A stretch of DNA of 64,000 nt from contig MHCJ01000003.1 in assembly GCA_001816585.1 (NCBI GenBank), positions 650,681-714,680 of the forward strand. The letters run 5' to 3'. The notes under the pieces were generated by a model. It was not told the DNA's origin. It did not search any database and worked only from the letters and a program-made list of their open reading frames with translations. Below, piece by piece: positions 3,306 to 60,765 of this stretch (within the stretch, counting starts at the first letter, position 1; each line of letters starts with the position of its first letter). This DNA is from Candidatus Chisholmbacteria bacterium RIFCSPHIGHO2_01_FULL_52_32. Lineage in GTDB: Bacteria; Patescibacteriota; Microgenomatia; UBA1400; Chisholmbacteraceae. The position numbers and the translations under genes are program-made.

Positions 3306-3309
3306 ATAT

Positions 3310-3369
3310 TAATGTTTAATGTTCAATGTTTAATGTTTAATGTTTAATGTTTAATGTTTAATGTTTAAT
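3310..3369. repeat. tandem 8-bp repeat (AATGTTTA, ~8 copies) between the HK stop and the RR start
   Basis: Directly visible: taatgtttaatgttcaatgtttaatgtttaatgtttaatgtttaatgtttaatgtttaat. Confidence 0.9.
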
Positions 3370-26238: not shown

Positions 26239-26370
26239 AGTTTGCAGTATACCAGATCTGGAGAGGCCTTCGGCTTAGACCTTCGGTTCGGCAACCTCTG
26301 GTTCTGAGAAGAGCCTCTGGCTCGGAGAGGAATGGCGTTGAGAGGTCGGGACTCTTGATAACAGAACGAG

Positions 26371-26407
26371 TGACAAGGTTGCACGTATATGCGTGTGCGG
26401 TGGTCAG
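26371..26407. repeat. A-box copy (tgacaaggttgCACGTATATGCGTGtgcggtggtcag) preceded by an E-module (gagaggtcgggactcttgataacagaacgag) that also precedes the 22791 copy
   Basis: Directly visible. Confidence 0.85.
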
Positions 26408-26408
26408 G

Positions 26409-27032
26409 TTACAGATGGAAGTATTCTTTGTATGCGTCTTCGTTTTCCAAGTACCCTATCGTCAGTAGCGTGACATTTTCGCCAATACCATAGAGTTCAC
26501 GGATAAAGTCAATTGCTTCGTTACACGGATAGGGAAAAAGATAGACGCTCTTCTGGAGTTGTAAAAATCCAAGTCGTTTTAAGGTGTCTCGCATGGCGTC
26601 TCTGGCTCGATTTTTTCCTTTTGGCACATCGTAGGAAACGATCCGCCATCTTTTATCCCAGGAAGATGGTGTCGGTATTGTCAGATCGCTAATCTTGTAT
26701 TGAAGGAGTCTTTTCCTGCCTTTTTCCGTAATTTGAACCGCATATCTTTCCCCGATCCTATATATCCTGATTAGCTTCTTTTTCCGCATCTCTAAGAGTC
26801 GTCGGCGCAATCGCCGCTGATCAAACTGCTCCCATTCCTCTTCTTCAGGATACTCCTGTTTTTCAAAGCGATACCCCCGTAACAGTATCGGCAGACCGGG
26901 CATGATAAGGCTCCCGGCAATGAACGCACCAATCCCTGCAATCATGAGGATCTGTTTTGCGACCGGATAGGTTTTGCTGATCTTTTTCTTGCCCTTCTTC
27001 TCCGACATGCTTTGTGTCCTGGTTTTGTCCAC
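26409..27032 (-). CDS. membrane-anchored PaaX-C-like (Cas2-fold) domain protein
   Basis: N-terminal TM, then W-RIVSYDVPKGKNRARDAMRDTLKRLGFLQLQKSVYLFPYP matching the PaaX C-terminal domain pattern. Confidence 0.55.
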   Translation of the reverse strand: MDKTRTQSMSEKKGKKKISKTYPVAKQILMIAGIGAFIAGSLIMPGLPILLRGYRFEKQEYPEEEEWEQFDQRRLRRRLLEMRKKKLIRIYRIGERYAVQITEKGRKRLLQYKISDLTIPTPSSWDKRWRIVSYDVPKGKNRARDAMRDTLKRLGFLQLQKSVYLFPYPCNEAIDFIRELYGIGENVTLLTIGYLENEDAYKEYFHL

Positions 27033-27054
27033 TGTAGCTTAATATTTGAAGAGT

Positions 27055-27262
27055 GACAAGGTTACACGCATATGCGTGTCCGGTGGTCAGTAGTTCATGG
27101 CGGGGGGAAAATGCGTTGGGCAGGAAAATGGAGTGACAAGCGGGCACGCATATGCGTGTGCGGTGGTCAGTGAAAGTCAGGTTAGGTGGGCAAATGAGGT
27201 GGGGTTGCAGGGTGTACCTGCAAGAAATTAAAGTCTTCAAGGATAAAATGCCTGGGTGGCTT
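27055..27262. repeat. A-box, 41-nt linker (tagttcatggcggggggaaaatgcgttgggcaggaaaatggagt), A-box, B-module
   Basis: The same A-linker-A architecture with a similar linker occurs at 28057-28172. Confidence 0.85.
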
Positions 27263-27649
27263 GGCTACCCGTCCGTCCTTCCCTCGTAGCATCAGCGGAG
27301 CGACTCGTCAGGCGGATCCCATCGAACGGTAGGTCGAGAGTAAATCGCTCCGGAATGGAGAAGTAATGTGATAAACTACCAGGCATTATTCTGGATTAAA
27401 ATATCCTGAGAGAAATCTTGTATGAGCCAAGAAGACGGTGTCTTGCTCAGTGGGCAGTATCCGGAGAGGCGTTTGGAGGATGGCAGAGTCATTCCCAGCT
27501 GGCTGGTGGTACTGTACTGGAAGGATCGATTTTTAGGATAGGGAACATCCGGGAAAAGACCACACGTCTACAACATTGATCCCTCAGACTTTCACAAGAG
27601 CCTAAGTTTTGAGTGGGGACCATACAGTTCGATTGCAGCCTCCGCTCAT

Positions 27650-27949
27650 ATGCACTTGGCCAAAGAATATGGTTCGGACTTAGGACCTACGGTGACTCCC
27701 CAAGAAATAATCAAAGGTAATACATTAGGTGATAACGGCGAAGAACTGGAATTGGATCAGATCCTGGAAAAGTTCGCTCTGCAAGGAATGGATCCGGAGA
27801 CCGACTCGCACTTTGGTTTTATTACAATGGCGAGGCCATCAACTGAGGAAGAACTACAGCGTAAGAATGAATGGATACAGGAAAGGTTTGAGGAGAGTAT
27901 CGAGAGACAGAAGCGGATCTGCGAAGAAGCCGGTTTTCCTTTCGATTAG
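27650..27949 (+). CDS. small hypothetical acidic protein (cassette ORF)
   Basis: 99-aa ORF with no motif. Confidence 0.35.
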   Translation: MHLAKEYGSDLGPTVTPQEIIKGNTLGDNGEELELDQILEKFALQGMDPETDSHFGFITMARPSTEEELQRKNEWIQERFEESIERQKRICEEAGFPFD

Positions 27950-28056
27950 CTGATACAAAGAATGCCCCCTTTGGACGCTCGACATCTTCGAAGAGAACTC
28001 GAAGCGATATTTGCTTAACGCTTATCAGAAGTCGGGATGTCTCATTATTGGATAAT

Positions 28057-28375
28057 TGACAAGGTCGCACGCATATGCGTGTTTGGTGGTCAGGTGGTCA
28101 TGGCGGAGGGAAATGAGGCGGGCAGGAAAATGAGGTGACATACAGACACGCGATCGCGTGGGCGGTGGTCAGAATTGGTTACAGGCCGGATCTATAAGGA
28201 AAAAACCACTCACGAGGTTAAAAACTCCCTAGGTGGCTTGAGAATTGCACCTCCCAGGTGGAAGACTAGTGACAAACAGACACGCGATCGCGTGTTTGGT
28301 GGTCAGTGTGAGTCAGATTAGGTGGGCAGTTGAGGTAGGGTTGCAGGGCGTAGCTGCAAGAAAAGCCGCCACCTG
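28057..28375. repeat. dense repeat block: A, linker, A, partial B, C, A, B
   Basis: Three A-boxes (28057-28093, 28136-28172, 28270-28306), a C-module at 28236-28260 and a B hairpin ttgcagggcgtagctgcaa at ~28343. Confidence 0.85.
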
Positions 28376-28424
28376 CCGATAAAAGCAGTTTTTTCCAAAA
28401 ACTGCTATCGCGGGCAGGTTTGAG

Positions 28425-28448
28425 TAAATCACCTCCGGGGTGGTTAAA
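28425..28448. repeat. D-module (taaatcacctccggggtggttaaata) at the stop of 28444..28680
   Basis: Copy of the 23734-23754 module. Confidence 0.8.
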
Positions 28449-28680
28449 TACTTGTCTTGATTTTTCCGTGAAGCTTTCTATCGGTTTCGGTATTGATCAC
28501 TGCTGCCAACTCTGCTTCATCCTGGTATTTTTCCGGTGTAACGGAAAACCAGCAGTTATCATCACCAGGCTTATAGTTCACTCTCAATTCGTGTTCATCA
28601 GCACCCTCGATATCCAATGCGATACTCTGATCTACCAATGCTCTGACCTTTTTGAAGTCCATATTTTCACCGCCTTTCAA
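28444..28680 (-). CDS. small hypothetical protein (cassette ORF)
   Basis: 78 aa, acidic. No motif. Confidence 0.35.
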   Translation of the reverse strand: MKGGENMDFKKVRALVDQSIALDIEGADEHELRVNYKPGDDNCWFSVTPEKYQDEAELAAVINTETDRKLHGKIKTSI

Positions 28681-28709
28681 GGATCGAACGTTGATAATTG
28701 TAAGATATT

Positions 28710-28925
28710 CTATTCGAACCGATTCCCTCTCGCTTCGGTATCCTCTCCTTCATCCTGAATGCCAGTATCAAGTCCAATGAATCTATTGTTAAAGAACTTG
28801 TTACCTTTTCCTCTGTTCAGAATCCCGATGCGTTTCGTTCTTTCGATCGGATTTTCGCTCGGATTCGATCGCCCAACATTGACATGTAAATGTGGTTCGA
28901 CTTTGACATTATTGATGTCGCCCAT
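28710..28925 (-). CDS. small hypothetical protein (cassette ORF)
   Basis: 71-aa ORF. Confidence 0.3.
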   Translation of the reverse strand: MGDINNVKVEPHLHVNVGRSNPSENPIERTKRIGILNRGKGNKFFNNRFIGLDTGIQDEGEDTEARGNRFE

Positions 28926-28940
28926 GATCCACCTCCTTCC

Positions 28941-29171
28941 TTAAAGTGTGGTTGTCGTCGATGAATTGTAAATGCTGGTTCCAGATGCGGTGGTAGTTGT
29001 CAAAGTAAAAACATCCCATCGTTCAACTGTTCGCTGTGGTTCAGCCGGAAGGTCATGATGTACACGACAATAGCCTTTTGTGCAGGCAAGATACGGTGAT
29101 GCCAAGCTGGCGCAAATGCAGATGGCAAACCCAGCCTTCTTAGCGTAATCAAGCCATTCAATGTCGTTCAT
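28941..29171 (-). CDS. small Cys-rich hypothetical protein (cassette ORF)
   Basis: 76 aa with a CICAS...C..YC..HH cluster and a Thr-rich tail. Confidence 0.3.
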   Translation of the reverse strand: MNDIEWLDYAKKAGFAICICASLASPYLACTKGYCRVHHDLPAEPQRTVERWDVFTLTTTTASGTSIYNSSTTTTL

Positions 29172-29481
29172 GTTGCCCTATCTCCTATGTTTCCGTCCGT
29201 GCTTCTGACTGAGAGCACTTCCGGCAACGGATTTGGTCCTTCGAGTAGTACGCCTGCTCCTCAAAAGTGAGGATGCTTTTCGAGCTACCCTCCTACTGGT
29301 TACCTTTGGATGCGCCATGGTTGTTCGCCTCCCTTCATTAGCACTCGATAATATTGACTGACAATATAGAACGAAAAAAAATGCTTGTAAAGCAGAAAAA
29401 TGCCCGAAGCAATATCAAGGTGGTGGACGTTCGTGCTCCTACCTCAAGGAACTGGCTGCCGCAGGCCTGGGGTGCTTAGAG

Positions 29482-29503
29482 TAATCCACCTCCGGGGTGG
29501 TTA
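29482..29503. repeat. D-module (taatccacctccggggtggttaat) at the stop of 29508..30479
   Basis: Third copy of the D-module. Confidence 0.8.
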
Positions 29504-29507
29504 ATTG

Positions 29508-30479
29508 TTATTCATATTTTTCATTCCAGCGATCAGTCAAAGCTGTGTACGTGTATGCATCAGCTACTAAGTTTGCGTATGTCTCATCATTATTGTAGGT
29601 TTTTGCAATCTTAATGACTTCGTTCCTACGTTCATCGCTAATCCACTCTCCATAAACACGCTGATTGGCGAAATACTCCTTTACGGCTAAGTCTACCGAT
29701 TTTTTATCATTCAGGGGCTTGGTTGAAGTGACTTGCATTATGCCATAAGTTCCTCGTCGGATAATGAGGGATTTGATTCTTTCTAAAAACCTGAACCATT
29801 TTGGTCGCTGGATATTTTCGACAATAGCAACGGCAAGAACGATAGCTTTGTCAGCGTGAAATTGTCTACTCTTTATCTCAATTTCGTCAATTAGGTTGTC
29901 ATCAATTGTTGCAAGCGACCGTTGAAATATCTCTGCTGGATGTTGATCGCGATTTTCGTAAGTCTTGTAAATTAATACAGCTAGACCAGCTCCTACAAAA
30001 GAAGACCATATGTTATCAACAAGTCCCTGCCATGTCGGGAAAAATGAGCCTACATACTTTGAATTTGACGCCCACCCGCTGAAGAATCCAGTAATAGGTA
30101 TGGATAAAATCGAAAAGATATGCACTAAATACTGGGAATATACATTAAAAAATCGTTTCAATCTCCCAGAGCGAATAATTAATTGTAAGAGAGCTCTACC
30201 ATTATGTAATAGGGTATGAAGTGAACCTATAGTAATTCCAACGATGAGATGTTGATTTATTGATAACTTGCTCCCAAACATTGAGATGGCTAAATTTATC
30301 GCAATAAATATTGGGATCATTCGAAAGGAGACGAACCGGAGTGGAGAAATGCTAATAAAAAGACTTGTGAAGTCTGATGTGCCGAAGTAAATATCTGGCC
30401 ATCTGTTTTTGAATATCCAGTAAAATATTTCTATAAAAAACAATCCAGCACTGATAACGATCAAGACATCGGGAATCAT
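29508..30479 (-). CDS. polytopic membrane protein with C-terminal lytic-transglycosylase (SLT)-like domain
   Basis: About 6 TM helices, then AIVLAVAIVEN...RGTYGIMQV resembling the SLT catalytic Glu and GLMQ motifs. Confidence 0.5.
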   Translation of the reverse strand: MIPDVLIVISAGLFFIEIFYWIFKNRWPDIYFGTSDFTSLFISISPLRFVSFRMIPIFIAINLAISMFGSKLSINQHLIVGITIGSLHTLLHNGRALLQLIIRSGRLKRFFNVYSQYLVHIFSILSIPITGFFSGWASNSKYVGSFFPTWQGLVDNIWSSFVGAGLAVLIYKTYENRDQHPAEIFQRSLATIDDNLIDEIEIKSRQFHADKAIVLAVAIVENIQRPKWFRFLERIKSLIIRRGTYGIMQVTSTKPLNDKKSVDLAVKEYFANQRVYGEWISDERRNEVIKIAKTYNNDETYANLVADAYTYTALTDRWNEKYE

Positions 30480-30592
30480 AAGAATGATGTGCCAACCTTA
30501 TACTAGCATCAAAAAGTGAACTCTATCGCCGAAAAAATCCGCCCTTGCGAGTCTCAAATAATCTCTATGGCACAGCTTAGTATTAGATTGTT

Positions 30593-32494
30593 TCATCCGG
30601 CCAATATCTTATGAATTCTGTGGGCATATTTATCAATTAACTGGGCCCTTTCAAAATTAATGGCTTCAGGAATATTGCTCTGAGGATATGTTGTTCTTCC
30701 GGTTTCAACTTTCTTTCGAGCAATTTCTCTACAAACAACATCAGTTACTAGCTCACCGATTAATACTCGTGCATATCTTTCGTTTTGATTCTCCCCATAA
30801 GGACCTATGTACATTTTTACTGAAGGTGCTTGCGTCGCAACAGTGATTATTCCGCTAGCTCTATCAAACATAACCCTGTACCGAGGATCTTCTTTGGGGC
30901 TGTATGTAATATCTTTAAAGAGACCTTTATTCTTTGGAAGTCCATCCACAATATCCGTCGGTTCTTTCGGTTTTGAACGAACTTCTATTAGGCACTCTGC
31001 TTTGAGTTCTCCAAATCTGGCGGTAAGCAAACCGAGGGCCCCTACTTGTCTGCCTTCAACTTTTACAGTCTCTGATGCAACATTACCAATTACATCAGAC
31101 TTTTGAAATTGAACTTTTGGCGTATGGACGATGAGCTCTTCTGAATCACTTTGGATTAATATCTCTTTATTGAATGGTATCGTATGGGGAACTAAGGCCC
31201 TAAGAGTAATGCTCTTAATCTTTCCGCTTACTACGGTTGTTATTGGTGGCAGGAAGGCAAAACCATTTTCTGGAATTTCCGGCTGCCTATGTAGGTCCTC
31301 ATCTAATCCAGTATCGCTTACCTCATCTCCAAGTTCCTCTTTTGTAATCTCACCAAGATCCTTCAATAATTTTTTAAATCGTTCTTTGGTTTCTCTTGTT
31401 TCAATATCCCTTTCTTCCTCCTTTCTTCTCATTTTTTCTTCTTTAATAATCGGTTCAAGAATTTCTTCAACGGCCAACTTTAATGATTTTATAAATGGAT
31501 GTTTGTTATTAAGCTCATCTCTTTTATCAGATATCACCTCCTCGCCTGAATTTAATAAGGTGTAAATATATTCGCATGTTACTTGACCAAATAGTCTTTC
31601 TGCTTCAGGGGAACTATCATATTTAAACAGTGTGATATCGTGTATGGCCTTACCATCTGATATTAATAACCCATTCTCTCTGTATGGACCCGCCTCCTCC
31701 CTCCCGCTCAGCGGCAATTCAGATCGATTGATTTCGATAGTAGCGTCGATTCTTTGACCTTTATAGTTAATAAAAAAAGAAGCTTGATATATCTTTTTTC
31801 CTCTTGGTGTTTTGTAGGAAATTTGAACTGGTTCACGCTTTTTATCTCCTTTATCTGATCGCTCAATAAGCTGCACAATCCTGTTTGGATCTTGGAGAAT
31901 GTTTCTCAGACTAAAATACTTCTGTAGTTGTTCTTTTAATCTCTCGAATTGAGGTGTTTTAATTTCTTCTCTGGTAGTTTTAAGTGTTACCTCCGTCCCG
32001 CAATCATAGATTCCTAGTCTACCCTTGTGTGTTGCCTTGACGGTTACAGGTGATTTTGAGTCATAATAAGCTTTATCATCAACATCGCATTCATATAGAT
32101 AGCCGTTTTTTACTGATCTAACTCTTCCATAACCAACGCCTACCATAGCTTCCTTCAATCCTCTTCCATAGTAACCTCTTACTATAGTCGGTGATTCACG
32201 GCCGCTCGTTTCTCCTCCATAACGGCCGATCTTTTCATCCATCTGCTGTCTATCAAAGCCTTCAGCTTGATCGACAACTCGAAAAGTAGATCCTATTCTT
32301 TTTCTTACAATTTCAATATGAATTAATCCTGATGTTTTCGAGTCGCTTTTTTCTATTCGACTATAGCTATCATCAGAATTTGTTATAAGTTCCACAAGAG
32401 CATATACGGGAGAATCTCCAACAAGTTGCTTCGCATTCTGAATTAATACTCTCGTCTCGATGTGTATTGGCCTTCTCTTTGTGTCCATAATCAA
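30593..32494 (-). CDS. MORC-like GHKL (Bergerat-fold) ATPase with a charged coiled-coil linker and an unknown ~200-aa C-terminal domain
   Basis: N-box ELITNSDDS, G1-like VVDQAEGFD, G2 GYYGRGLKEA (the G-x-Y-G-x-G-L-K pattern seen in MORC/MutL-type HATPase_c_3). Third gene of an operon with 4-nt overlaps. Confidence 0.65.
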   Translation of the reverse strand: MIMDTKRRPIHIETRVLIQNAKQLVGDSPVYALVELITNSDDSYSRIEKSDSKTSGLIHIEIVRKRIGSTFRVVDQAEGFDRQQMDEKIGRYGGETSGRESPTIVRGYYGRGLKEAMVGVGYGRVRSVKNGYLYECDVDDKAYYDSKSPVTVKATHKGRLGIYDCGTEVTLKTTREEIKTPQFERLKEQLQKYFSLRNILQDPNRIVQLIERSDKGDKKREPVQISYKTPRGKKIYQASFFINYKGQRIDATIEINRSELPLSGREEAGPYRENGLLISDGKAIHDITLFKYDSSPEAERLFGQVTCEYIYTLLNSGEEVISDKRDELNNKHPFIKSLKLAVEEILEPIIKEEKMRRKEEERDIETRETKERFKKLLKDLGEITKEELGDEVSDTGLDEDLHRQPEIPENGFAFLPPITTVVSGKIKSITLRALVPHTIPFNKEILIQSDSEELIVHTPKVQFQKSDVIGNVASETVKVEGRQVGALGLLTARFGELKAECLIEVRSKPKEPTDIVDGLPKNKGLFKDITYSPKEDPRYRVMFDRASGIITVATQAPSVKMYIGPYGENQNERYARVLIGELVTDVVCREIARKKVETGRTTYPQSNIPEAINFERAQLIDKYAHRIHKILAG

Positions 32495-33147
32495 TCCCTT
32501 CTTTTAAGCATCCCCCCGCGTTTTCCTACAAATAGCTCTTCTTTGAAATTTTCCTCACAAAAGTGAAGTAAATTCATAATGTCGTCTCTGCCATATAGCT
32601 CTACATACTGCTTAATTTCAATAAGATTGTCTTTTTTGGTAAGAGGTAGGCTATCCGGTGTACAAAAAATTAATTCATAGAAATCTAATGGCTGAATTTG
32701 ATCTCGTTTCCCAACTTTGTACAAATGGTAAGCCTTACTTTTCTCTATTCTCTTTACGAATATTCCTGCTCTTGTTCTCTCGTCTCCTTTACGTCTAACA
32801 ATAACCACATCTCCTGAAGAAGGGGCTAATTTGTTGTGTATTCTCTCTGCAGCTCTGGTACCAAGAGGTGTGATATTAAATCCCCGAGAAGTACTACCGG
32901 TAATATAATGCTTGTCAGTTCTACATCGGAGCCACGTTTTATTGACTAGGGATGAATCTGGCCACTCTGGGTGTCCGATCAGATGGAATCTAGATGGAAA
33001 AAGTGTAAAAACTTTCTCGACCAGATTCTCAAATGTCGGATTCTTATTCGTTTTAAGCAAGGAAAAAAGTGCGTACGTTACCAATTCGTCATACGAAATT
33101 TTCATGTAAACATCAGGTTCATAAAGCTCACGAGGTTTTGAGATCAT
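32491..33147 (-). CDS. hypothetical protein (middle gene of the GHKL operon)
   Basis: 218-aa ORF whose ATGA overlaps both neighbours (translational coupling). No recognisable motif. Confidence 0.5.
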   Translation of the reverse strand: MISKPRELYEPDVYMKISYDELVTYALFSLLKTNKNPTFENLVEKVFTLFPSRFHLIGHPEWPDSSLVNKTWLRCRTDKHYITGSTSRGFNITPLGTRAAERIHNKLAPSSGDVVIVRRKGDERTRAGIFVKRIEKSKAYHLYKVGKRDQIQPLDFYELIFCTPDSLPLTKKDNLIEIKQYVELYGRDDIMNLLHFCEENFKEELFVGKRGGMLKRRD

Positions 33148-33359
33148 AACCTAAATTCCTTCTTCTTTTTCTTAATAAAACGAGCCTTCGTCATCTTAAG
33201 TTGGGAATCGATTGCGTAGAAGATCTTATTGATCTCTTCATCGGAGTAATCGTAATTTGCTCTGTTGGAGAGATTTCCGAGAATTCGAAGTTTCTCGAGG
33301 ACGATATTTGTTCTTTGTACTGCCAGGCGTTTAAATCTATCTTGTCGTGTTTCTGTCAT
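33144..33359 (-). CDS. small basic protein, possible DNA-binding regulator (first gene of the GHKL operon)
   Basis: 71 aa with a predicted helical core RFKRLAVQRTNIVLEKLRILGNLSN and a K-rich tail. Confidence 0.4.
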   Translation of the reverse strand: MTETRQDRFKRLAVQRTNIVLEKLRILGNLSNRANYDYSDEEINKIFYAIDSQLKMTKARFIKKKKKEFRL

Positions 33360-33681
33360 AGGAACATTATCAATTGTGTATAAACAGCGCTATTATACCA
33401 TATATGGTATCATTTGTAAATATCTAATATTAGAAAATGATAATCTAATATTGCCTGATCTGTATATAAACCTTCACTTGAGATAAATAAAAACTGCCCT
33501 TCCGGGCAGCATTTGATTGTGTTCCTAAATATCCTAGTTCTCAAGTGCTCTTCAAGATATGAACTTTCGCTGATGCTATATCTCAGAGTTAGACACTATT
33601 ACCAGATAATCTGATAGTTTTGTTATTGACACTTTCGTAAAACTTTCATATAGTTTAACCGTTACCTTACAGTTCGTCATT

Positions 33682-35094
33682 ATGCTTACACCTAAACAAA
33701 AGAAAGTACTAGATTTCATAACATCTTTTATCAAGACAAATGACTATTCTCCATCATTAGAAGAAGTCGCGAAGAATTTTAAACTCAAGTCTGTTTCGAG
33801 TGCGCATCAATTTGTTGATGCCCTCCATAAGAAGGGATATTTAAAAAAAATAGAGAATCAACAGCGCTCAATTGAACTAATAATTGGATTGGTAGAGATC
33901 CCTTTATTTGGTTATATTTCCGCTGGTGAGCCTATTGAGGCTATTTCGAATCCAGAACCCATAAAAGTACCTCACAAGATGCTCTCGAAGAGTGGTCTTC
34001 ATTATGCACTAAAAGTTAAAGGCGATAGTATGGTTGATGAAGGAATAAATGACGGAGCTACAGTCATAATTCGAAGACAAGAGACGGCTACGAACGGCCA
34101 AAAGGTAGTCGCTCTTATAAACGGAAATGAAGCGACGCTCAAGAAGATTTATAAAGAGAAGAAAGGTTTTAGACTCCAGCCAGCAAATTCCAGCATGAAG
34201 CCAATTTTCGTAAAAGATTTAATAATTCAAGGAAAAGTGATAGGGGTACTACCAAACTATGAAGATACAACTAGACCTACGGGGAAAATAGCTCAAACCA
34301 AAATTCCTACAAAATTTGCTTTAGACAGGATTATTTCTGGTGATGTTTTAGAGGTAATGTCTCAAATTCCTGATAATAGCATTCATCTAGCTATAACTTC
34401 CCCGCCCTATAATGTGGGTAAAGATTATGACAACCATAATGATCGTATGAATTATCAAGAATATTTAGAATGGCTTGAGAAAGTGTGGAGAGAAACAAAA
34501 AGGGTACTTGTACCAGGGGGAAGGTTTGCACTAAATATTGCTCCGACAGGAATCAAAGATTTCGTACCTATTCACCACGATTTCGCAAATCAATTGCGTA
34601 AAATAGACATGAAATTTAGAACAGAGATTATTTGGTACAAACAAACAATGCTTAAACGTACTGCCTGGGGAAGCTTTAAAAGCCCAGCGAATCCTCATAT
34701 AGTACCATCGTGGGAATATGTATTAGTTTTCTCAAAAGACAAAGACAGGCTGGATGGAGATCAGAAAAACTCTGACATAACAAAGCAAGAGTTTATGGAT
34801 TTCTCTGATGGATATTGGAAAATACAGCCTGAGACAAAACGAAATGGACACCCGGCACCTTTTCCCGAGGAATTAATTTACCGCCTCATAAAATTCTATT
34901 CTTATAAAGGAAATACTATTTTAGATATGTTTGGTGGAACTGGAACAGTTGCAGTAGTGTCCCACAAGACTAAAAGACGTTTTATACATATAGACATTTC
35001 AGAAGAATACAACAGGGTAGCACAAAAACGCTTGGATGCCATCAAAAACCCCCCACAACTTTTTGGAGAGAATTCCTACCGGTTTGCTGCCTAA
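33682..35094 (+). CDS. fusion: LexA repressor (wHTH + S24 autopeptidase) plus beta-class N4/N6 DNA methyltransferase (SPPY, m4C-type)
   Basis: Residues 1-~200 align to E. coli LexA along their length: LTPKQKKVLDFI, the cleavage-site SAGEP, Ser nucleophile GDSM, Lys in ATLKKIYK, and PANSSMKPIFV. Residues ~215-470 carry MTase motif IV TSPPYN followed by motif I FGGTGT. It is a single uninterrupted ORF. Confidence 0.8.
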   Translation: MLTPKQKKVLDFITSFIKTNDYSPSLEEVAKNFKLKSVSSAHQFVDALHKKGYLKKIENQQRSIELIIGLVEIPLFGYISAGEPIEAISNPEPIKVPHKMLSKSGLHYALKVKGDSMVDEGINDGATVIIRRQETATNGQKVVALINGNEATLKKIYKEKKGFRLQPANSSMKPIFVKDLIIQGKVIGVLPNYEDTTRPTGKIAQTKIPTKFALDRIISGDVLEVMSQIPDNSIHLAITSPPYNVGKDYDNHNDRMNYQEYLEWLEKVWRETKRVLVPGGRFALNIAPTGIKDFVPIHHDFANQLRKIDMKFRTEIIWYKQTMLKRTAWGSFKSPANPHIVPSWEYVLVFSKDKDRLDGDQKNSDITKQEFMDFSDGYWKIQPETKRNGHPAPFPEELIYRLIKFYSYKGNTILDMFGGTGTVAVVSHKTKRRFIHIDISEEYNRVAQKRLDAIKNPPQLFGENSYRFAA

Positions 35095-35124
35095 ATACTC
35101 AAAGCGGTTCGAAAAACTATAGAA

Positions 35125-35940
35125 TTAGCCAAATAATGTTTTACCTTCAAGCACCCCTTCATCAATTGGCTCATCAGTAAAATTGGGAACAACCTCTTGT
35201 CTCCAGATCCTTAGGTCGGAAAAAAGCGGTTTTCCTCCGTCAGTCCTGGAAAAATCCAGTTTTTTAACTTGGGAACATTCAGTAGTACTTGGGTGTGTTG
35301 AAAAAACGCGATCCAAATAAGCTTCCGACTTTTTTCGTAAGCTACTTGCTTCATTATCGCCTTTGACGAACTTCTTATCCAAATCTTGAGTTACCAAGCA
35401 ATATTTGATGTTGTTATTTCGAAGTGCTAAAGCCCAGAACAAAACAGCATCGTTTCTGGCATGGTCACTTGTCTTACAGTTTAAAAGCGCAAATACTTTG
35501 AGTCTACCGCCTTGTTCTTTTGATAGCACAACTATATCGGAGTCTGGCCACACGCCGGTGGTTGTTTGAACGCAGCGTCGTCTAGCATCTAAAGTTAAAA
35601 ATCGCACAATTTCCTGGGCTCGTGGCTTTTTTCTGAGATGATCTCCTTTTACGGCCACTATCCCTTCGTTGTTCAAGTTTTCATTTATGATATTTCTAAT
35701 GAATATTTCAAAATTATTTCCACTGGCTGCTACCCAACTCTGCCTTGCCTGGTTTAAATTTCCTCTGCCTTTTTCCTGATAGAGTCTAATGTAAATTTTC
35801 TGAGTAGTCTCCATGACCTTTCTTTCAGGAACTTCCTCCAATTGAACAGTGTTCAAGATCCTCCCTACATCATTAATGGGTTTATTCCCAAAGCTCTGCA
35901 AATCCCGTTTTGCTTTTTGATAAATTATTTCGAAATCCAT
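35125..35940 (-). CDS. putative type II restriction endonuclease (convergent partner of the MTase)
   Basis: 271 aa with a PD...(D/E)xK-like stretch (WPDSDIVVLSKE). The position convergent to a methyltransferase fits a restriction enzyme. The motif assignment is weak. Confidence 0.45.
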   Translation of the reverse strand: MDFEIIYQKAKRDLQSFGNKPINDVGRILNTVQLEEVPERKVMETTQKIYIRLYQEKGRGNLNQARQSWVAASGNNFEIFIRNIINENLNNEGIVAVKGDHLRKKPRAQEIVRFLTLDARRRCVQTTTGVWPDSDIVVLSKEQGGRLKVFALLNCKTSDHARNDAVLFWALALRNNNIKYCLVTQDLDKKFVKGDNEASSLRKKSEAYLDRVFSTHPSTTECSQVKKLDFSRTDGGKPLFSDLRIWRQEVVPNFTDEPIDEGVLEGKTLFG

Positions 35941-36110
35941 AAAATATTGATTGTGAGTGTACTAATACTAATAGTTTAACACAAACACCAGACTAAAACT
36001 CCGTCCGTATAGATTACCTCGCCGTAATAGCTATTGCAGGTCCAGCATGCAAAAGTATGAAAGGTGTTTACGGGATGTCAAGTGTAGTTTAGCGAGCTTA
36101 AGGGGATTTA

Positions 36111-36168
36111 GGGGCTCCCAGTGAGATAGGCAAGCCATCTCACGGGATCAGAGAGAAGTTAGGGGAGG
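36111..36168. ncRNA. conserved ~55-nt hairpin element, copy 1 (family also at 39260-39313 and 56730-56786)
   Basis: ggggctcccaGTGAGATaggcaagccATCTCACgggatcagagagaagttagggg. Copies differ by compensatory stem changes (GTGAGAT/ATCTCAC versus GTGGGAT/ATCCCAC). Confidence 0.5.
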
Positions 36169-36614
36169 ATCAGCTCCCCTTGCATCCCCGGCCAGAGGCC
36201 TTCGGTCTTTTCAAGCCTGATACGGACAAGGCAAGTGTTGTTTTTAAGATTTGGAAGAGGAGGCAAGACTTGGCCGGGGAACTCCCCGTCTTTGCCGGAA
36301 AGAAGGATTTTCACCTGCGCTCCTTCCGCAAAGTTTCCGATTTCGCTCCAGGGAACCTCAAACTCAAAGTGAAGCGTAGCAAAGTCAAGGATCGCGAATC
36401 CGTACGACCCGGGAGTGATGTAGAGCCCCGGCCGCAAGCCGTCATCCGAAACCACGATTCCCTCAACCGGAGAGGCTAAGGATGTCTGGTCCATCCGGTA
36501 TTTTGCCAGCTCGACTGCCTTGACCGCCGGAGCCTCGGCGAAGGCGGGCCTCGCCCTTCCGTCCTGTCCCTCGTAGCCCCGCCTTCCACCTGGGAGGTGG
36601 AATAGCCTTGACAC
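36159..36614 (-). pseudogene. 5'-truncated fragment of an RND/HlyD-family periplasmic adaptor gene
   Basis: Encodes only the C-terminal beta-barrel/MP-proximal part (EGIVVSDDGLRPGLYITPGSYGFAILD...VRIRLEKTEGLWPGMQGELI). The coiled-coil N-terminal half is absent, and the missing side abuts ccgacctgcag repeats at 36690 and 36790. Confidence 0.5.
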
Positions 36615-37503: not shown

Positions 37504-37519
37504 GCTGAAAGTTTATCTT

Positions 37520-37760
37520 AAGATTATCTTTGTGTCAAGTAAAAATAGGGTTTAAGGGAAGGTAAGGGTGACTAAGGGTGGATTAAGGGTAATTTGGGCA
37601 AGCTTGTAGCTGGGAGGATTAGGAAAGCTTGTAGCTTGTAGCTTATTAGCTTGTAGATAAAGAGAGAGAAGATTTAGGATTTACGATTTATGATTTACGA
37701 ATAGAGAAATAAGAGAGAAGATTTAGGGATTAGGAATGAGAGAGAAGCCGGAGGTTTACC
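37520..37760. repeat. degenerate short tandem word repeats (TAAGGGT, CTTGTAG, GATTTA families) with regularly spaced GGG tracts
   Basis: aagggaaggtaagggtgactaagggtggattaagggtaatttggg...cttgtagcttgtagcttattagcttgtag... Confidence 0.8.
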
Positions 37761-37766
37761 ACAGTA

Positions 37767-37850
37767 CCAGACCAGTCAGACTGGTCGGTACGTGGTTTCA
37801 GTCTCTCGATTGAATGAAGCCCCGAGTCTGACTCGGGGAGGCTTCACTTG
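37767..37850. terminator. composite hairpin element, copy 2 of the 9513-9611 family
   Basis: gtaccagaccagtcagactggtcggtac hairpin, then ccccgagtctgactcgggg hairpin, then gaggcttcac. The stem base pair differs from copy 1 in a compensatory way (gcacc/ggtgc versus gtacc/ggtac). Confidence 0.5.
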
Positions 37851-39089: not shown

Positions 39090-39360
39090 ATGGGTGGGTG
39101 TGAAGTGTACGAATCAGATAATTATGAATCATGAATTATAAGAAGTTAAGGGAGGGTAAGGGGTGTTAAGGGAAATTAAAGGAAGTTAGGGGAAGTTAGG
39201 AGAGGCTAAGTGGTTGTAGGTCCGAGCTGCGCAAATGTTAAGGGTGTTTAAGGGAAGTTAAGGCCCCAGTGGGATAGTCAAGGCATCCCACGGGGTCGGT
39301 GAGAAGTTAAGGGAGGTTAAGGGATTGCAGGACCTTTGCGTGTTTTTGCCGTATACTTAG
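39090..39360. repeat. GTTAAGG-type degenerate tandem repeats with the embedded conserved hairpin element (copy 2, 39260-39313)
   Basis: gttaagggagggtaaggggtgttaagggaaattaaaggaagttaggggaagttagg...aaggccccagtgggatagtcaaggcatcccacggggtcggtgagaagttaaggg. Confidence 0.8.
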
Positions 39361-39838: not shown

Positions 39839-39857
39839 GAATTAGGCACGGGAGGCT

Positions 39858-39950
39858 TACTTGACAATAAGGTTTACAATTATATTGACAATTATTTAGG
39901 GCAAAGCTTGACACAAAACTTGACAATAAGCTTTACCATTGTGTAGTCTT
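39858..39950 (+). promoter_or_regulatory. four TTGACA boxes in 65 nt (two copies of cTTGACAATAAG) upstream of the Fic gene
   Basis: TTGACA at 39861, 39885, 39908 and 39920. A possible operator array. Confidence 0.4.
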
Positions 39951-39961
39951 GAAAGAGAAGT

Positions 39962-40981
39962 ATGCTCCGCCCCAGGTACAAACGCACCAATAAGATCCTC
40001 ACCAACATCGCCGAGATCGAGCGGCTGTACGGGCAGATTGAGGCAATCCGGATCCCCGAGAAACTGGAGCTCAACCTCAAGCGGGACAACCTGATTAAAT
40101 CCACCTACGCCTCAAACCGCATCGAAGGAAACCCCTTAACACTTCCCGAAGTGACCAACCTCCTTTTGGATGAGCGGGTGCCGACGAACCGGGACGAAAA
40201 GGAAGTGGTCAGTTACTTTACGCTTCTGTCGGAGCTTGACCGGTTCAAGGACAGCGAACTCTCTTTGGAACTCGTGCGCGACTTTCATGGGCGGGTACTG
40301 GCGGGCGTGGATGAGACGGCAGGCAGAATCAGAGACCGGAAGGTCGTGGTCGGCAAGTATCTCGGGGAGCGGGGATCAATGACGCTCAGAGTAAAGCATG
40401 ATCCCCCTTTCCATGCCCGCGAGAAGATCGAGGCAGCTTTGACGGACCTTCTTCTGTGGACGGGAAAGGCGGGCAATTTGCCGACCGTTCTTAAGACCGG
40501 GATTTTCCACCACGAATTCGTGTACATCCACCCGTTTGAGGACGGGAACGGCCGCGTCTGCCGCATGCTGACGTCGCTTTTATTTATTAAAGACGGGTAC
40601 CGGATCAATAAATACTTCATCCTGGACGATTACTACGACATCGATAAGATCCTCTACTCGGACCAATTGCATTCCGCCGATAACGGGGACAAGACCGCGT
40701 GGCTTGAGTATTTCTCTGACGGGGTCAAGTATTCCCTGATCGGGGCACTCGACCGGGTGAAGAACGCGGCACGGACCCTTTCCCACAGGGACCGGCCGAC
40801 GAAGAAGGAAAGCGAGGTCCTGGCAATCATGCAGGAGCAACCGGAGATGACCTCGACTGAGATCGCCGCAAAAATCGGGGTTACCCGGCAACAAGCGCAC
40901 AACCTGCTTTCTTCACTGGTCCGGAAAAGCCTGATCGAGCGCAAAGGAACGACGAAGTCGAGCTACTATATCATTAAGTGA
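39962..40981 (+). CDS. Fic/DOC-family protein with C-terminal wHTH
   Basis: Core Fic motif HPFEDGNGRVCR plus a C-terminal HTH (TSTEIAAKIGVTRQQAHNLLSSL). Confidence 0.85.
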   Translation: MLRPRYKRTNKILTNIAEIERLYGQIEAIRIPEKLELNLKRDNLIKSTYASNRIEGNPLTLPEVTNLLLDERVPTNRDEKEVVSYFTLLSELDRFKDSELSLELVRDFHGRVLAGVDETAGRIRDRKVVVGKYLGERGSMTLRVKHDPPFHAREKIEAALTDLLLWTGKAGNLPTVLKTGIFHHEFVYIHPFEDGNGRVCRMLTSLLFIKDGYRINKYFILDDYYDIDKILYSDQLHSADNGDKTAWLEYFSDGVKYSLIGALDRVKNAARTLSHRDRPTKKESEVLAIMQEQPEMTSTEIAAKIGVTRQQAHNLLSSLVRKSLIERKGTTKSSYYIIK

Positions 40982-41039
40982 TAAGGGAAAAGGAATCAGT
41001 GATAAGGGATGAGGAGTCTTTCGACTCCTTCGACTTCGC

Positions 41040-41215
41040 TCAGGATAAAGGTTTAGGGTATAGAGCGGAGAGCATAGAGCAGAGAGGAGAGAGGAGAGCG
41101 GAGAGCTTAGGGCATAGAGCTTAGAGCAGAGAGGAGAGAGGAGAGCGGAGAGCTTAGGGCATAGAGCTTAGAGCAGAGAGCGGAGGGGAGAGGGGAAAGG
41201 ATGGAGGGGAGAGGG
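41040..41215. repeat. GAGAG/TAGAGC-rich tandem repeats including a perfect ~47-bp tandem duplication (about 41081-41127 and 41128-41175)
   Basis: gagaggagagaggagagcggagagcttagggcatagagcttagagca occurs twice in tandem. Confidence 0.85.
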
Positions 41216-41223
41216 TAGAGGGT

Positions 41224-42552: not shown

Positions 42553-42612
42553 GGGTTATGGGATATGAATTATGAATTATGAATTATGAATTAAGATTTG
42601 AGAATTGAGAAG
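42553..42612. repeat. AATTATG tandem heptamer (4 copies)
   Basis: gaattatgaattatgaattatgaattaag. The same word repeat recurs at 52654-52690. Confidence 0.85.
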
Positions 42613-43739: not shown

Positions 43740-43868
43740 GGAAGGTCAAAAAGCGTATGGCGAATGGCAAATAGCAAATAGCTAATAGCAGATGGCATAT
43801 AGCTTATAGCTTATGGCGTATAGCTGATAGCGAAGAGCAGGAGATCAGAGAGAAGTTAAGGGGGAAGA
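43740..43868. repeat. ATAGC(A/T) word repeats
   Basis: gcaaatagcaaatagctaatagcagatggcatatagcttatagcttatggcgtatagctgatagcg. Confidence 0.8.
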
Positions 43869-52647: not shown

Positions 52648-52727
52648 AAATTATGAATTATGAATTATGAATTAAGAATAATGAATAAGACTCGTCGGTC
52701 GTTGATCTTGCCGGTTTCCGAGTCGGT

Positions 52728-56311: not shown

Positions 56312-56668
56312 ATGGGTTATAATAGCCTTCGTATGGATCTTACTCAAAGACACTGCGTTCCTTGTGAGGGAGGTATTTCCCCATTTGATGCGGCTTATGC
56401 CGCCGAGTGGCTGCGAAATATCCAGGGTTGGAGGCTCGTTGCGGGAAGTAAGAAAATTCAAAAAGACTTTATCTTTAGGAATTTCAAGGAAGTCATCGGG
56501 TTTGTGAATAACGTTGCGGAGATTGCCGATACGGAGAATCACCACCCCGATCTTTTTATCCACAGCTATAAGAAACTTCGAATCACTCTTTCGACGCACG
56601 CAATCGGTGGGCTTTCGGAGAACGACTTCATTCTGGCCGCGAAGATTGACAAGATTCAGGGGAAATGA
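56312..56668 (+). CDS. pterin-4a-carbinolamine dehydratase (PCD/DCoH)
   Basis: 118-aa core with the HHPD motif (ENHHPDLFIHSYK). Start at internal Met MGYNS of the track ORF. Confidence 0.8.
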   Translation: MGYNSLRMDLTQRHCVPCEGGISPFDAAYAAEWLRNIQGWRLVAGSKKIQKDFIFRNFKEVIGFVNNVAEIADTENHHPDLFIHSYKKLRITLSTHAIGGLSENDFILAAKIDKIQGK

Positions 56669-56800
56669 GGGGGAATGAGGGATGTTAAGGGTAAAGTTAA
56701 GGGAGGTTAAGGGGAAATTAAGGGTAGTTAAGGCCCCGGTGAGATAGGACTTCGTCCATCTCACGGGGTCGGAGAGAAGTTAAGGGAAATTAACGAGAGC
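56669..56800. repeat. GTTAAGG-type tandem repeats with the embedded conserved hairpin element (copy 3, 56730-56786)
   Basis: gagggatgttaagggtaaagttaagggaggttaaggggaaattaagggtagttaaggccccggtgagatagg...catctcacggggtcggagagaagttaaggg. Confidence 0.8.
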
Positions 56801-59331: not shown

Positions 59332-59559
59332 TGCTGATTTAGCCGCATTGGAAATCAGGTTTTTTTTACGGGACTGCGGTCACAAGCTTTGCTTGTTCTC
59401 TTGCCCCATATAATAAACTTGATTATCTACTGACTGCATATTCTGCCGTATTAGATTTCATGTTTTTTAACGGGGCTTCGATCACTCGGGCGGAGTACCA
59501 CCCGGGTTCTCTTGCATTCTAGCAGAGGATACCGCTATACTCAAAGGAGAAAATAGGGG

Positions 59560-59650
59560 GTAGGAGCTAGGGGTTAGGGTATAGGGTTTAGGGTTAAAGA
59601 ATTGAGCTTCAAGATTTAAGAATTGAACATTAAACATTGAATATTAAACA
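59560..59650. repeat. G-tract and AACATTGA word repeats upstream of 59651
   Basis: GGGttaGGGtataGGGtttaGGG (a canonical (G3N4-5)4 arrangement) then gaattgagcttcaagatttaagaattgaacattaaacattgaatattaaacattga. Confidence 0.8.
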
Positions 59651-60706
59651 TTGATCTTTGGCATGGCAACCCTCACCGAAGCCTCCTACTATTCGAGAAA
59701 TATCATCAAGTACGGCTCAATTGTTGTCGTTATCTTACTTGCTATTCGGATCGGGGTAGCTGTTTTTACTACGTGGTGGAAGCGGCTTCATCCGCCTCCC
59801 CCGCCTCCGGTGACCGTGGAGTTCGGAAAATTGCCGGCCCTCTTCCCGTCTACGGAGAAACCGGAAATCAAATTTCGTTTGGAGACGGCTACGGGAAAAC
59901 TCGGTGAATTCGGCCCGCAAGCCCTGGTCTACCTCATTCCGGCAAAGCGAGGGAATCTGCTGGCGCTTGAGCGGGCAACCGATCTTGCTAAAAAGATGGA
60001 ATTCATATCCGAACCGACAAATTCAGGGACCCTTTATCGGTGGACAAAGGATAAGCCCCTTCCCTCCTCTCTGGAGATTGATATTGTGAGCGGCGATTTC
60101 ACTTTCGATGCGAATTGGAGGGTTGAGCCACAGCTTCTGACGACCTCCATCGCACCTTCCGAATCCGAGGCTATCGCTTCAGCCCGAGGTTGGCTATCCG
60201 GCATGGGACTTTTAGAGGATGATTTGGAAGTCGGGGAGACGCGTGTCACCTACCTAAAGGTGTTGGGGACGGATGTTGTCATAGCAGCTTCACCATCCGA
60301 GGCGCAGTTTGTCCGCGTGGACCTGTTTCGGGTTAATTTAGAGGATGCCCGTATCCTACCCTCAAACCCGGATGATGGCCTGGTGTTTGTCGTTGCATTG
60401 GGTTCCAGATACGGAAGATCCCAGGTGGTCCACGGTGAATACCGATATTTCCCGGTTGATTACACACAAACCGCTACCTATCCGTTGATTTCGGTTGATA
60501 CCGCCTGGAAACGTCTCGCGGAAGGAAAGGCTTTCTTGGCTATCCTGCCGAAGGATCTTTCGGAGATCGCGATTCGTAAGGTTAGCTTGGACTATTTTGA
60601 TCCTCCTGAAGCCGGTCTCTTCCTCCAGCCTATCTTTGTGTTTGAAGGTGATGGGGGTTTTGTGGGGTATGTGGCGGCAGTTTCGGATGAGTGGATACAG
60701 GAATAA
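59651..60706 (+). CDS. hypothetical membrane-anchored secreted protein
   Basis: N-terminal TM, poly-Pro (PPPPPPV), and a 300-aa extracellular region. No known motif. Confidence 0.45.
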   Translation: MIFGMATLTEASYYSRNIIKYGSIVVVILLAIRIGVAVFTTWWKRLHPPPPPPVTVEFGKLPALFPSTEKPEIKFRLETATGKLGEFGPQALVYLIPAKRGNLLALERATDLAKKMEFISEPTNSGTLYRWTKDKPLPSSLEIDIVSGDFTFDANWRVEPQLLTTSIAPSESEAIASARGWLSGMGLLEDDLEVGETRVTYLKVLGTDVVIAASPSEAQFVRVDLFRVNLEDARILPSNPDDGLVFVVALGSRYGRSQVVHGEYRYFPVDYTQTATYPLISVDTAWKRLAEGKAFLAILPKDLSEIAIRKVSLDYFDPPEAGLFLQPIFVFEGDGGFVGYVAAVSDEWIQE

Positions 60707-60765
60707 TATAAGTTAAAAGTGAAAGGTGAAAAGTGAAAAGTTCAATATTAGAAGTTTTTACTACC

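Follow-up and report, generated by a model that had tools for sequence, protein, structure and literature searches.

Polar short tandem repeats in the intergenic spacers of a Candidatus Chisholmbacteria genome region

Introduction

What are the short, degenerate tandem repeats that occupy many intergenic spacers of Candidatus Chisholmbacteria bacterium RIFCSPHIGHO2_01_FULL_52_32, and do they serve any function there? The question arose from a stretch of 64,000 nucleotides (contig MHCJ01000003.1, positions 650,681 to 714,680 of the forward strand; referred to below as the window), in which an initial annotation, made from the sequence alone, had singled out the repeats at 37520–37760 and at nine other places. 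It had described them as taking the place of ordinary promoter or terminator sequence, and had proposed that they may act as transcription or nucleoid punctuation, among other ways as G-quadruplex (G4) roadblocks. The genomes of the Candidate Phyla Radiation (CPR, or Patescibacteria) are tiny and dense, and little is known of how transcription starts and stops in them; a polar repeat load in such a genome is therefore worth explaining, and could mean either an unusual mutational regime (strand-biased slippage, weak mismatch repair) or a repeat-built separation of transcription units.

The repeat landscape proved to be real, non-random and lineage-specific, of a known kind that had not been described in this phylum. 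We give a probability of about 0.5 to the reading that the arrays, together with a hairpin embedded in some of them, are lineage-specific non-coding simple-sequence repeats, the Chisholmbacteria counterpart of the STRR (short tandemly repeated repetitive) elements of cyanobacteria and of the mosaics of repetitive extragenic palindromes and bacterial interspersed mosaic elements (REP/BIME).

Sequences and analysis

Exact protein look-ups assigned the proteins of the window to Candidatus Chisholmbacteria (Microgenomates, CPR/Patescibacteria), represented by a metagenome-assembled genome from the Rifle aquifer. The same DNA is present, in reverse orientation, in GCA_001816955.1 (contig MHCM01000003.1, approx. 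349.8–413.8 kb). A cyanobacterial origin was ruled out by these protein names and by the count of highly iterated palindrome (HIP1) sites, 5 in the window, which is below the cyanobacterial enrichment.

The sample of this genome amounted to 84 kb, comprising the window and a second locus (L214), 33 kb apart on one contig. Gene calls were those of the public annotation of the same DNA, with our own open reading frame (ORF) calls for 1–14.8 kb. Tandem arrays were identified with Tandem Repeats Finder (TRF), and those with a score of at least 45 were counted; the chance level was taken from 100 dinucleotide-preserving shuffles of the 54 spacers of the window. Strains were compared using loci of 99–100% identity (L001–L006, L087–L089, and L215, which matches L214). 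Relatives were graded by GluRS identity, i.e. 71% (L210, L211 and L217), 62% (L213) and 58% (L212). The wider background consisted of 1.28 Mb of GreA-centred CPR/Chloroflexi loci, with a GreA identity of no more than 50% among the matches listed.

Arrays are concentrated in non-coding DNA

TRF arrays were detected at 10/10 of the places named initially. The 54 spacers hold 12 counted arrays (674 nt), as against a mean of 0.25 and a maximum of 2 in the shuffled sequences. Non-coding DNA, though it makes up 16% of the window, accounts for 915 of the 1223 TRF-covered bases; arrays cover 8.9% of non-coding and 0.57% of coding bases, a 15-fold enrichment, so the intergenic location first described holds and an equal occurrence in coding DNA was not seen. 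The sole sizeable coding array (17854–17955; GGnGTT periodicity, 30-nt unit x2.6) lies within a 144-aa ORF (17718–18152), which encodes a Gly/Val-rich low-complexity protein with a Gly-rich peptide repeat.

Since at least eight independent metagenome assemblies carry the DNA of the window at 99–100% identity, the repeats are not assembly artefacts, a possibility also ruled out by the identity of the arrays across the megahit, JGI, ANAN16 and NCBI assemblies.

The distribution of the arrays is uneven. They were proposed as a genome-wide signature, which agrees with their presence at many spacers of the 84 kb and disagrees with a segment (5–36 kb) that is essentially array-free. Between 36 and 64 kb, 11/16 of the spacers of at least 59 nt bear arrays, and polar tandem repeats amount to about a quarter of the spacer DNA; a single spacer bears them in 1–18 kb and none in the low-GC island at 18–36 kb, which has a repeat family of its own. 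The arrays and the elements associated with them are listed below (the composite element is a hairpin with conserved flanks, described further on).

3309..3369, + strand: TTAATGT x8.7 (96% matches); as ACATTAA on the − strand it adjoins the ATG of a 121-aa gene
36097..36176, + strand: composite element, copy 1 (86 bits), with TTAAGGGG/TTTAGGGG, hairpin CCCAGTGAGATAGG..CCATCTCACGGG and ATCAGAGAGAAGTTAGGGGA; in the − strand reading it begins 9 nt past the stop of a 151-aa gene
37510..37538, − strand: TTGACA-17-TAAACT, promoter-like, followed after 6 nt by the ATG of an antitoxin-like gene of 83 aa
37548..37590, + strand: four TAAGGGT/GTTAAGGG-type units, 10–11-nt spacing, adjoining upstream the −35 box of the 83-aa gene promoter
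37594..37661, + strand: AGCTTGT heptamers x4.3 (TRF), with higher-order copies of 23–25 nt
37663..37747, + strand: GATTTAC/GATTTAG heptamers, framed by 3 x AGAGAGAAGATTTAGG (a variant of the GAGAAGTTAAGGG word)
37752..37843, − strand: two strong hairpins without a U-tract, directly 3′ of the stop of a 393-aa gene (z −5.5)
39120..39235, + strand: divergent spacer of greA and the 393-aa gene, with GAATTAT (39120–39139) and then GAAGTTAAGG repeated strictly every 10 nt
39247..39324, + strand: composite element, copy 2 (102 bits), with stem GTGGGAT/ATCCCAC, a compensatory change
41040..41222, + strand: GAGAGCA/GAGAGGA heptamers (TRF AGAGCAG x18 at 41062–41222) with a GAGGGGA tail, in the convergent spacer between a Fic gene and a trypsin-like protease gene; 47-nt higher-order repeat x2.7 (93% matches)
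42564..42611, + strand: GAATTAT x4.3 (100% matches) and GAATTGA, located 30 nt upstream of the ATG of the protease gene; its − strand reading, ATTCATA, yields promoter-like matches
43756..43868, + strand: AATAGCA/TATAGCT heptamers (TRF AATAGCA at 43756–43831), then a solo right-end word ATCAGAGAGAAGTTAAGGGGG (43842–43862)
52649..52686, + strand: GAATTAT x5.4, adjoining the ATG of a P-type ATPase gene; unit identical to that at 42564 (29/29 nt)
56658..56733, + strand: AGGGAAGTTA-type units, 10–12-nt spacing, starting from the Pterin_4a stop codon, in a convergent spacer
56717..56797, + strand: composite element, copy 3 (93 bits), with a longer hairpin loop (GGACTTCGTCC)
59553..59595, + strand: TAGGGGT/TAGGGTT heptamers between a TATACT −10-like box (59537–59542) and the ATG of a 347-aa gene, i.e. 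within the putative 5′ untranslated region (UTR) of this gene
59616..59654, + strand: ACATTAA/ACATTGA heptamers adjoining the 347-aa gene at its start; the unit at 3309–3369 in reverse complement
60710..60741, + strand: convergent spacer with AAAGTGA heptamers x4.6

The spacer that raised the question (37504–37843) separates two − strand genes, the 393-aa gene and then the 83-aa gene, which in turn precedes a PIN-domain gene. In the sense of these genes it contains, in order, the stop, the two hairpins, approx. 200 nt of arrays (by TRF, TAAGGGTGGAC x2.6, AGCTTGT x4.3 and GATTTAC x4.3 at 37509–37700), the promoter-like site and the ATG. The claim that such spacers lack ordinary signals thus fails here, where TTGACA-17-TAAACT stands 6 nt before the ATG and two strong hairpins follow the upstream gene; the arrays fill the DNA between ordinary-looking signals.

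Two further features of this spacer deserve mention. A palindrome, AAAGTTTATCTTAAGATTATCTTT (37508–37531), spans the promoter spacer of the 83-aa/PIN gene pair and probably serves a toxin-antitoxin pair as its autoregulatory operator. A 33-nt hairpin is common to 37757–37789 and 9503–9535 (94% identical), two unrelated spacers in which it lies just past a gene end; it forms a second dispersed hairpin family.

Units and architecture

TRF revealed a period of 7 or 14 in ten arrays and of 10–11 in four more. The heptamer class comprises TTAATGT, AGCTTGT, GATTTAC, AGAGCAG, TATGAAT/AATTATG, AATAGCA, TAGGGGT, ATTAAAC and AAGTGAA; the array at 3310–3369, which had been described as an 8-mer, belongs here (TTAATGT x8.7). 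The class of period 10–11 includes GAAGTTAAGG (x5.7, with more copies, at 39134–39324), AGGGAAGTTA, TAAGGGTGGAC and the GTTAAGGG-type units.

All-against-all comparison of the spacers showed that units recur. GAATTAT is found at 39120, 42564 and 52649, each time upstream of the start of a − strand gene, ACATTAA at 3309 and 59616, each time adjoining a start codon in the sense direction, and GTTAAGGG-type units at no fewer than six spacers, L214 included. Spacing of the latter is strict at 39146–39196 (10, 10, 10, 10, 10) and 10–12 nt elsewhere. Higher-order units of 47 nt (41069–41196), 49 nt (L210) and 35–42 nt (L217) indicate growth via block duplication, as in satellite DNA. Most arrays are merely 64–90% matched, near-perfect ones being those at 3309 (96%) and 42564 (100%).

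In one of the strain loci (L088, 21524–21670, equivalent to window 40978–41124) public annotation places a 48-aa gene for the most part within the GAGAGCA array, almost certainly a spurious ORF made by the repeat. The arrays thus explain spurious small ORF calls; they can also break assemblies, and they provide strain and species markers for Chisholmbacteria.

Arrays are constant among strains and turn over between species

The comparison of strains revealed no difference in array length and no indels; two single-nucleotide polymorphisms were the only changes inside arrays. This constancy argues against hypermutability of the contingency type. Heptamers in promoter regions are also the material of contingency loci, such as those reportedly formed by 7-bp simple-sequence repeats in the hmw promoters of Haemophilus. 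If the arrays were phase-variable loci of this sort, switching neighbouring promoters via repeat number, this would fit the overlap of some of them (the ATTCATA arrays) with promoter-like hexamers and the existence of the two near-perfect arrays; the copies here are generally degenerate, at 64–90% matches poor substrates for slippage, and in at least eight assemblies from different samples all arrays retain their length, with no copy-number polymorphism. Phase variation is therefore largely refuted, and we retain next to no belief in it.

In the 71% relative synteny is kept, and arrays occur at the same junctions with different units. The convergent spacer between an S11-peptidase gene and a hypothetical gene, for example, contains 32 nt of AAAAGTG in the window and 148 nt of CAAAAGT-type repeats with a 49-nt higher-order unit in the relative. 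The RNase Y-hup spacer holds CACCCTTAT, CTCCCCCTCT and CTAAACC in L214 and TTCATTG x13 with TTTCCTGCTCCCTAC units in the relative; in both species these arrays are C-rich in the sense direction and lie directly upstream of a conserved hup promoter and 5′ UTR. The hup-ABC spacer, 213 nt long here, measures 40 nt in the relative, free of arrays and of the composite element, and the two species have a TAGAAT-7-ATG promoter in common.

In the more distant relatives the spacers are 2–52 bp, or 238 bp, in length and array-free (62% and 58%). In the 62% relative, 26 nt separate the conserved TATACT box from the ATG of the ortholog of the 347-aa gene; in the window and in L210, arrays of 115–125 nt stand between the two. 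Overall, arrays are mostly placed between a stop codon and the next promoter, with this one case between a −10 box and an ATG.

The lineage-specific character first suggested is therefore borne out, since arrays are present in this species and in the 71% relative and absent from the 58–62% relatives, and what was not found is conservation of the units. Conserved promoters beside arrays, together with the short array-free spacers of distant relatives, show that they are insertions or expansions into permissive DNA. The arrays are therefore lineage-specific and dispensable for the flanking genes; their sequence turns over fast, and completely between species, and their place persists.

Polarity follows the chromosome strand

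By the orientation of their flanking genes, the spacers with arrays fall into co-directional (5), divergent (3) and convergent (3) classes, and arrays adjoin start codons (3309, 52649 and 59616) or a stop codon (56658), or lie inside a 5′ UTR. Arrays thus occur at starts, at stops and in all spacer classes, and no simple rule relative to gene ends, as had been envisaged, applies.

The strand bias anticipated at the outset is, by contrast with the position rule, evident. Almost every array has its G-rich side on the same chromosome strand, regardless of gene direction; the array-bearing spacers of the window and of L214 are all G-rich on the window + strand, with a GC skew of magnitude 0.45–0.77, as compared with values near 0 in array-free spacers. 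The opposite, C-rich strand, which is the + strand of the MHCM01000003.1 record, carries ~80% of the genes. The Fic, Pterin_4a and 347-aa genes, located on the other strand, meet arrays in the G-rich sense, which indicates that polarity tracks the chromosome strand and not the neighbouring gene. The GC skew at third codon positions (GC3) has the same chromosomal sign for both gene orientations (0.07–0.11, and 0.22 in spacers).

The regular spacing and the polarity raise the possibility that the phased 10–11-nt GTTAAGGG arrays, and perhaps the heptamers, are binding sites for a nucleoid protein, a regulator or a polar reader of the FtsK/SpoIIIE type. The spacing is that of the helical repeat, strict at 39146–39196, and TTAAGGG words are found on one strand in 17/19 cases. 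The GAGAAG..GGG word also recalls polar motifs such as the SpoIIIE recognition sequence (SRS) of B. subtilis, GAGAAGGG. On the other side, TTAAGGG outside the arrays is unskewed (about 3 vs 2), the units are not conserved in relatives, and no candidate binding protein was identified; we consider binding arrays unlikely. A genome-wide polar word, comparable to SRS or to the FtsK-orienting polar sequences (KOPS), was ruled out by the same unskewed counts.

G-quadruplex potential is confined to a minority of arrays

The consensus (G3N1-7)4 is matched at 37548–37578, 39150–39172, 56659–56691 and 59570–59593, the last of which substantiates the match originally reported at 59571–59594. All four sites are on the + strand, from which most neighbouring genes are transcribed as template, and their number in non-coding DNA (4) compares with 0.09 in shuffled non-coding sequence. 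These counts are what would speak for GGG-periodic arrays that form G-quadruplexes and act as roadblocks or nucleoid marks. Four G3 tracts are, however, present in just 4 of ~14 arrays; the other ~10, e.g. GAATTAT, ACATTAA, AAAGTGA, AATAGCA and most of GAGAGCA, are incapable of forming a G4, and the orthologous arrays of relatives are built from units that lack G tracts and are AT-rich or C/T-rich (CAAAAGT, TTCATTG). As a common principle of the arrays, G4 formation is not supported. Because the potential is limited to four arrays and absent from the orthologous arrays of relatives, it is best seen as a by-product of GGG-containing units; from these sequences, a role as roadblock or mark would be highly improbable.

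A composite hairpin element

Five copies of a composite element were found in the 84 kb, at 36097, 39247 and 56717 of the window and at two sites of L214, one between hup and the ABC ATPase gene (L094/L214) and one at L214 2893–2998 (hairpin 2907–2941). The element consists of TTAAGG, a 15-bp hairpin (CCCCrGTGrGAT..loop..ATCyCACGGGG) and TCrGwGAGAAGTTArGGGA, and is embedded in GTTAAGGG arrays. Three of the 15 pairs of the stem are kept via double changes in four aligned copies, and the loops vary. All copies share one orientation, and four of the five hairpins lie 9–85 nt past a stop codon and share the orientation of the gene that ends there.

A covariance model of the element, which gave the three window copies 86–102 bits, found no copy in 22 loci of relatives and other Microgenomates, and Rfam searches of the array regions (gathering threshold and E <= 1) returned nothing relevant. 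A scan of metagenome contigs with CACGGGNNNNNNGAGAAGTTA yielded a single true copy, that in L094. The scan pattern (21 nt) coincides with an unrelated, widespread sequence, CACGGGGTTATTGAGAAGTTAC (L092–L171, from many unrelated metagenomes), which is often located at contig ends and in inverted pairs 0.1–2.7 kb apart, and which probably represents a terminal inverted repeat belonging to a common insertion sequence family.

Could the hairpin and its flanks be a mobile non-autonomous element, of the miniature inverted-repeat or REP type, moved by a REP-associated tyrosine transposase (RAYT) or an IS200-type enzyme, with the arrays as its debris? Conserved flanks in all five copies (TTAAGG on the left and TCrGwGAGAAGTTArGGG on the right), the solo right end at 43842–43862 and the absence of the element from the orthologous hup-ABC spacer of the close relative would be expected of such an element. 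The single orientation of all copies would not, and neither would the fact that most arrays, the heptamers, have no hairpin; moreover, the copies showed neither terminal inverted repeats nor target-site duplications, and no transposase was present in the 84 kb examined. Mobility of this kind appears improbable.

Composition and a possible role in transcription

In the sense of the main coding strand, the arrays read as C-rich and G-poor (C:G of 66:10, 87:15 and 50:2) over stretches of 60–180 nt, with a minimum free energy per nucleotide of 0 to −0.11, as against −0.20 to −0.29 for coding RNA, and several of these unstructured stretches adjoin a stable hairpin. In this they resemble, by analogy, Rho loading sites.

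The ordinary signals of the region bear on the same point. Canonical terminators composed of a hairpin and a T-run are not enriched (23 found, 26.9 expected). A −10-like hexamer (TAAACT, TAGAAT, TACAAT, TATAAT or GATACT) precedes many ATGs by 6–8 nt without a Shine-Dalgarno sequence, e.g. at the gene starts 37503, 39371, 42534, 43722, 44063 and 53509; hup, by contrast, has AGGAG. This suggests that leaderless, individually promoted mRNAs are widespread in this organism.

It is thus conceivable that the arrays are selected transcription punctuation, in which Rho utilization (rut) sites, with a C-rich motif every 7–11 nt, and hairpins serving as pause sites or 3′ protectors would together replace canonical terminators. 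The composition, the low degree of structure, the lack of terminator enrichment, the hairpins past stops without U-tracts and the position of four of the five composite-element hairpins past a stop, in the sense of the gene, are all consistent with such a role; with a −10 box directly before so many ATGs each spacer must separate transcription units, and the C-rich polarity is retained across species while the units change. Regular C runs on the main coding strand are a further likeness to rut sites.

The differences are of equal note. Natural rut sites are not tandem repeats, and the orientation of the arrays ignores each gene: the downstream array is C-rich in sense for − strand genes and reversed, i.e. 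G-rich in sense, for the + strand genes (Fic, Pterin_4a and the 347-aa gene), so that a convergent spacer would serve one gene only. There are also arrays placed in divergent spacers upstream of promoters, or within a 5′ UTR, and the 58–62% relatives do with spacers of 2–52 bp. A search of the examined loci for rho gave a sole match, in an Anaerolineae locus, and none in the 84 kb of this genome; nothing on point was found in the literature for Rho in CPR or for leaderless mRNAs in Patescibacteria.

The idea of a terminator substitute therefore survives in a C-rich, Rho-like form and not in a G4 form; the lack of terminator enrichment lends it some weight, and the indifference of polarity to the adjacent gene tells against it. 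Selected punctuation remains, for us, a minority view with a real but modest chance of being correct. A slightly bolder proposal, that the C-rich arrays and the hairpins lacking U-tracts are working terminators or insulators, and the heptamer arrays flush with stop and start codons an undescribed gene-boundary feature shared by Patescibacteria more broadly, is rather unlikely; if true, Rho loading sites made of repeats would operate in a genome whose genes are leaderless and individually promoted.

Comparison with known repeat systems

Full-text searching of the literature gave no description of tandem repeats or simple-sequence repeats of this kind in CPR. The closest matches in kind are the cyanobacterial STRR for the arrays and REP/BIME mosaics for the hairpin.

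STRR are 7-bp intergenic tandem repeats of unknown function, sometimes hairpin-forming (PMC2670836). The arrays of the 84 kb likewise have units of ~7 nt, a location in spacers and dispersed unit families; tandem heptamers with several unit families per genome, intergenic and able to contribute to hairpins, are thus a shared trait (PMC2670836). The differences are the CPR host, the other units, the additional GGG-periodic units of 10–11 nt, the uniform polarity and the embedded hairpin.

The STRR consensus units (CCCCAGT and others) were not found here. Since both host and units differ, the arrays are not an STRR family in the strict sense.

REP/BIME of Enterobacteria and Pseudomonas are imperfect palindromes of ~35 nt, extragenic, mostly just past stops, and form mosaics with short motifs. 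The hairpin of the composite element is similarly a conserved imperfect palindrome with a stable stem of 15 pairs; it differs in having one orientation and flanks composed of tandem repeats instead of defined linker motifs. The Pfam tables for the 84 kb list no RAYT gene, with no dedicated search added to them, and the GTAG signature was not seen.

A more distant parallel is provided by Borgs, archaeal extrachromosomal elements with pervasive, recently formed, lineage-specific and fast-evolving tandem repeats, which are reportedly often within genes and create disordered protein regions (PMC9879509); the Chisholmbacteria arrays are degenerate and intergenic.

Under the reading as lineage-specific simple-sequence repeats, the arrays would arise by replication slippage, unequal exchange and block duplication, and a strand-biased mutational or slippage process would set their polarity, in the direction of the local GC3 skew. 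They would be tolerated, or weakly favoured, as spacer DNA, and would not be sequence-specific signals. Any function would be compositional, in that a C-rich, G-poor, unstructured RNA would lie beside a stable hairpin on the strand with ~80% of the genes, a make-up that would match a Rho-dependent terminator or a 3′-end stabiliser.

Four points weigh against this explanation: (i) a streamlined genome of 1.16 Mb is not expected to retain hundreds of useless bases per spacer, (ii) arrays at the same junctions in two species, with C-richness kept despite sequence turnover, hint at selection on position or composition, (iii) slippage alone is not an obvious explanation for the strict 10-nt phasing of GTTAAGGG and for identical units at unlinked spacers, and (iv) within the one 84-kb region sampled, replication direction and majority gene direction are not separable.

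Occurrence in other Patescibacteria

The density of counted arrays is 8.2 per 100 kb in the CPR/Chloroflexi background, as compared with 20.3 here, and the bases covered amount to 0.33% and 1.19%, respectively. Periods 7 and 14 account for 19/39 of the non-coding background arrays; the hosts of these are Gottesmanbacteria, Falkowbacteria, Saccharibacteria and other Microgenomates, and in many cases the array directly meets a stop or start codon. Cyclic permutations of one heptamer, CTCAAAA, are present in Gottesmanbacteria (two loci) and in Falkowbacteria. The window is a dense case of a pattern that is thinner across Patescibacteria.

Inverted pairs of heptamer arrays were observed in a Falkowbacteria locus (L081, 14730–14808 and 7–84) and in L210 (1724–1830), with the units GAATTAGGAATCAG / TAATTCATGATTCA and AATGAGT / ACTCATT. 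Such pairs would fold into long repeat-built hairpins just past stops or in 5′ UTRs.

Other repeats and loci in the window

The low-GC island at 18000–36000 (GC 0.35–0.45), without host tandem arrays, carries genes for a BsaWI-like restriction enzyme, a LexA/S24-N6_N4 methylase fusion, NucS and a YafQ toxin, along with many small ORFs. At its right edge strain L090 has a truncated restriction gene and a different neighbour. Within the island, 22750–28400 contains ten same-strand copies of a 40-nt module (GAGTGACAAGG..CACGCATATGCGTG..GGTGGTCAG), whose central palindrome alternates between ATAT and GATC in a compensatory manner, as well as GGTTGCAGG..CTGCAAGAAA in 7 copies and a 36-nt hairpin in 4. 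Each of these repeats is in one of the long spacers before small genes, and 22788–22930 is 97% identical to 24224–24366 over 143 nt. The set looks like a repeated promoter/operator module of an integrated element.

The greA-Fic spacer (39855–39945) contains four TTGACA boxes and two copies of CTTGACAATAAGsTTTACmATT, a putative duplicated promoter or operator before the Fic/HTH gene.

A non-coding segment between GluRS and the 347-aa gene (59287–59546; L210 1850–2121, L213 5517–5754) is conserved far beyond the flanking proteins, being near-identical in the 71% relative and recognisable in the 62% relative. It has no Rfam match. Two units of ~90 nt make it up in tandem, both containing a long-range inverted repeat, GTCCCGTA..TACGGGAC, and it ends in promoter-like TTGCAT-18-TATACT. 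The segment is a candidate regulatory RNA or leader.

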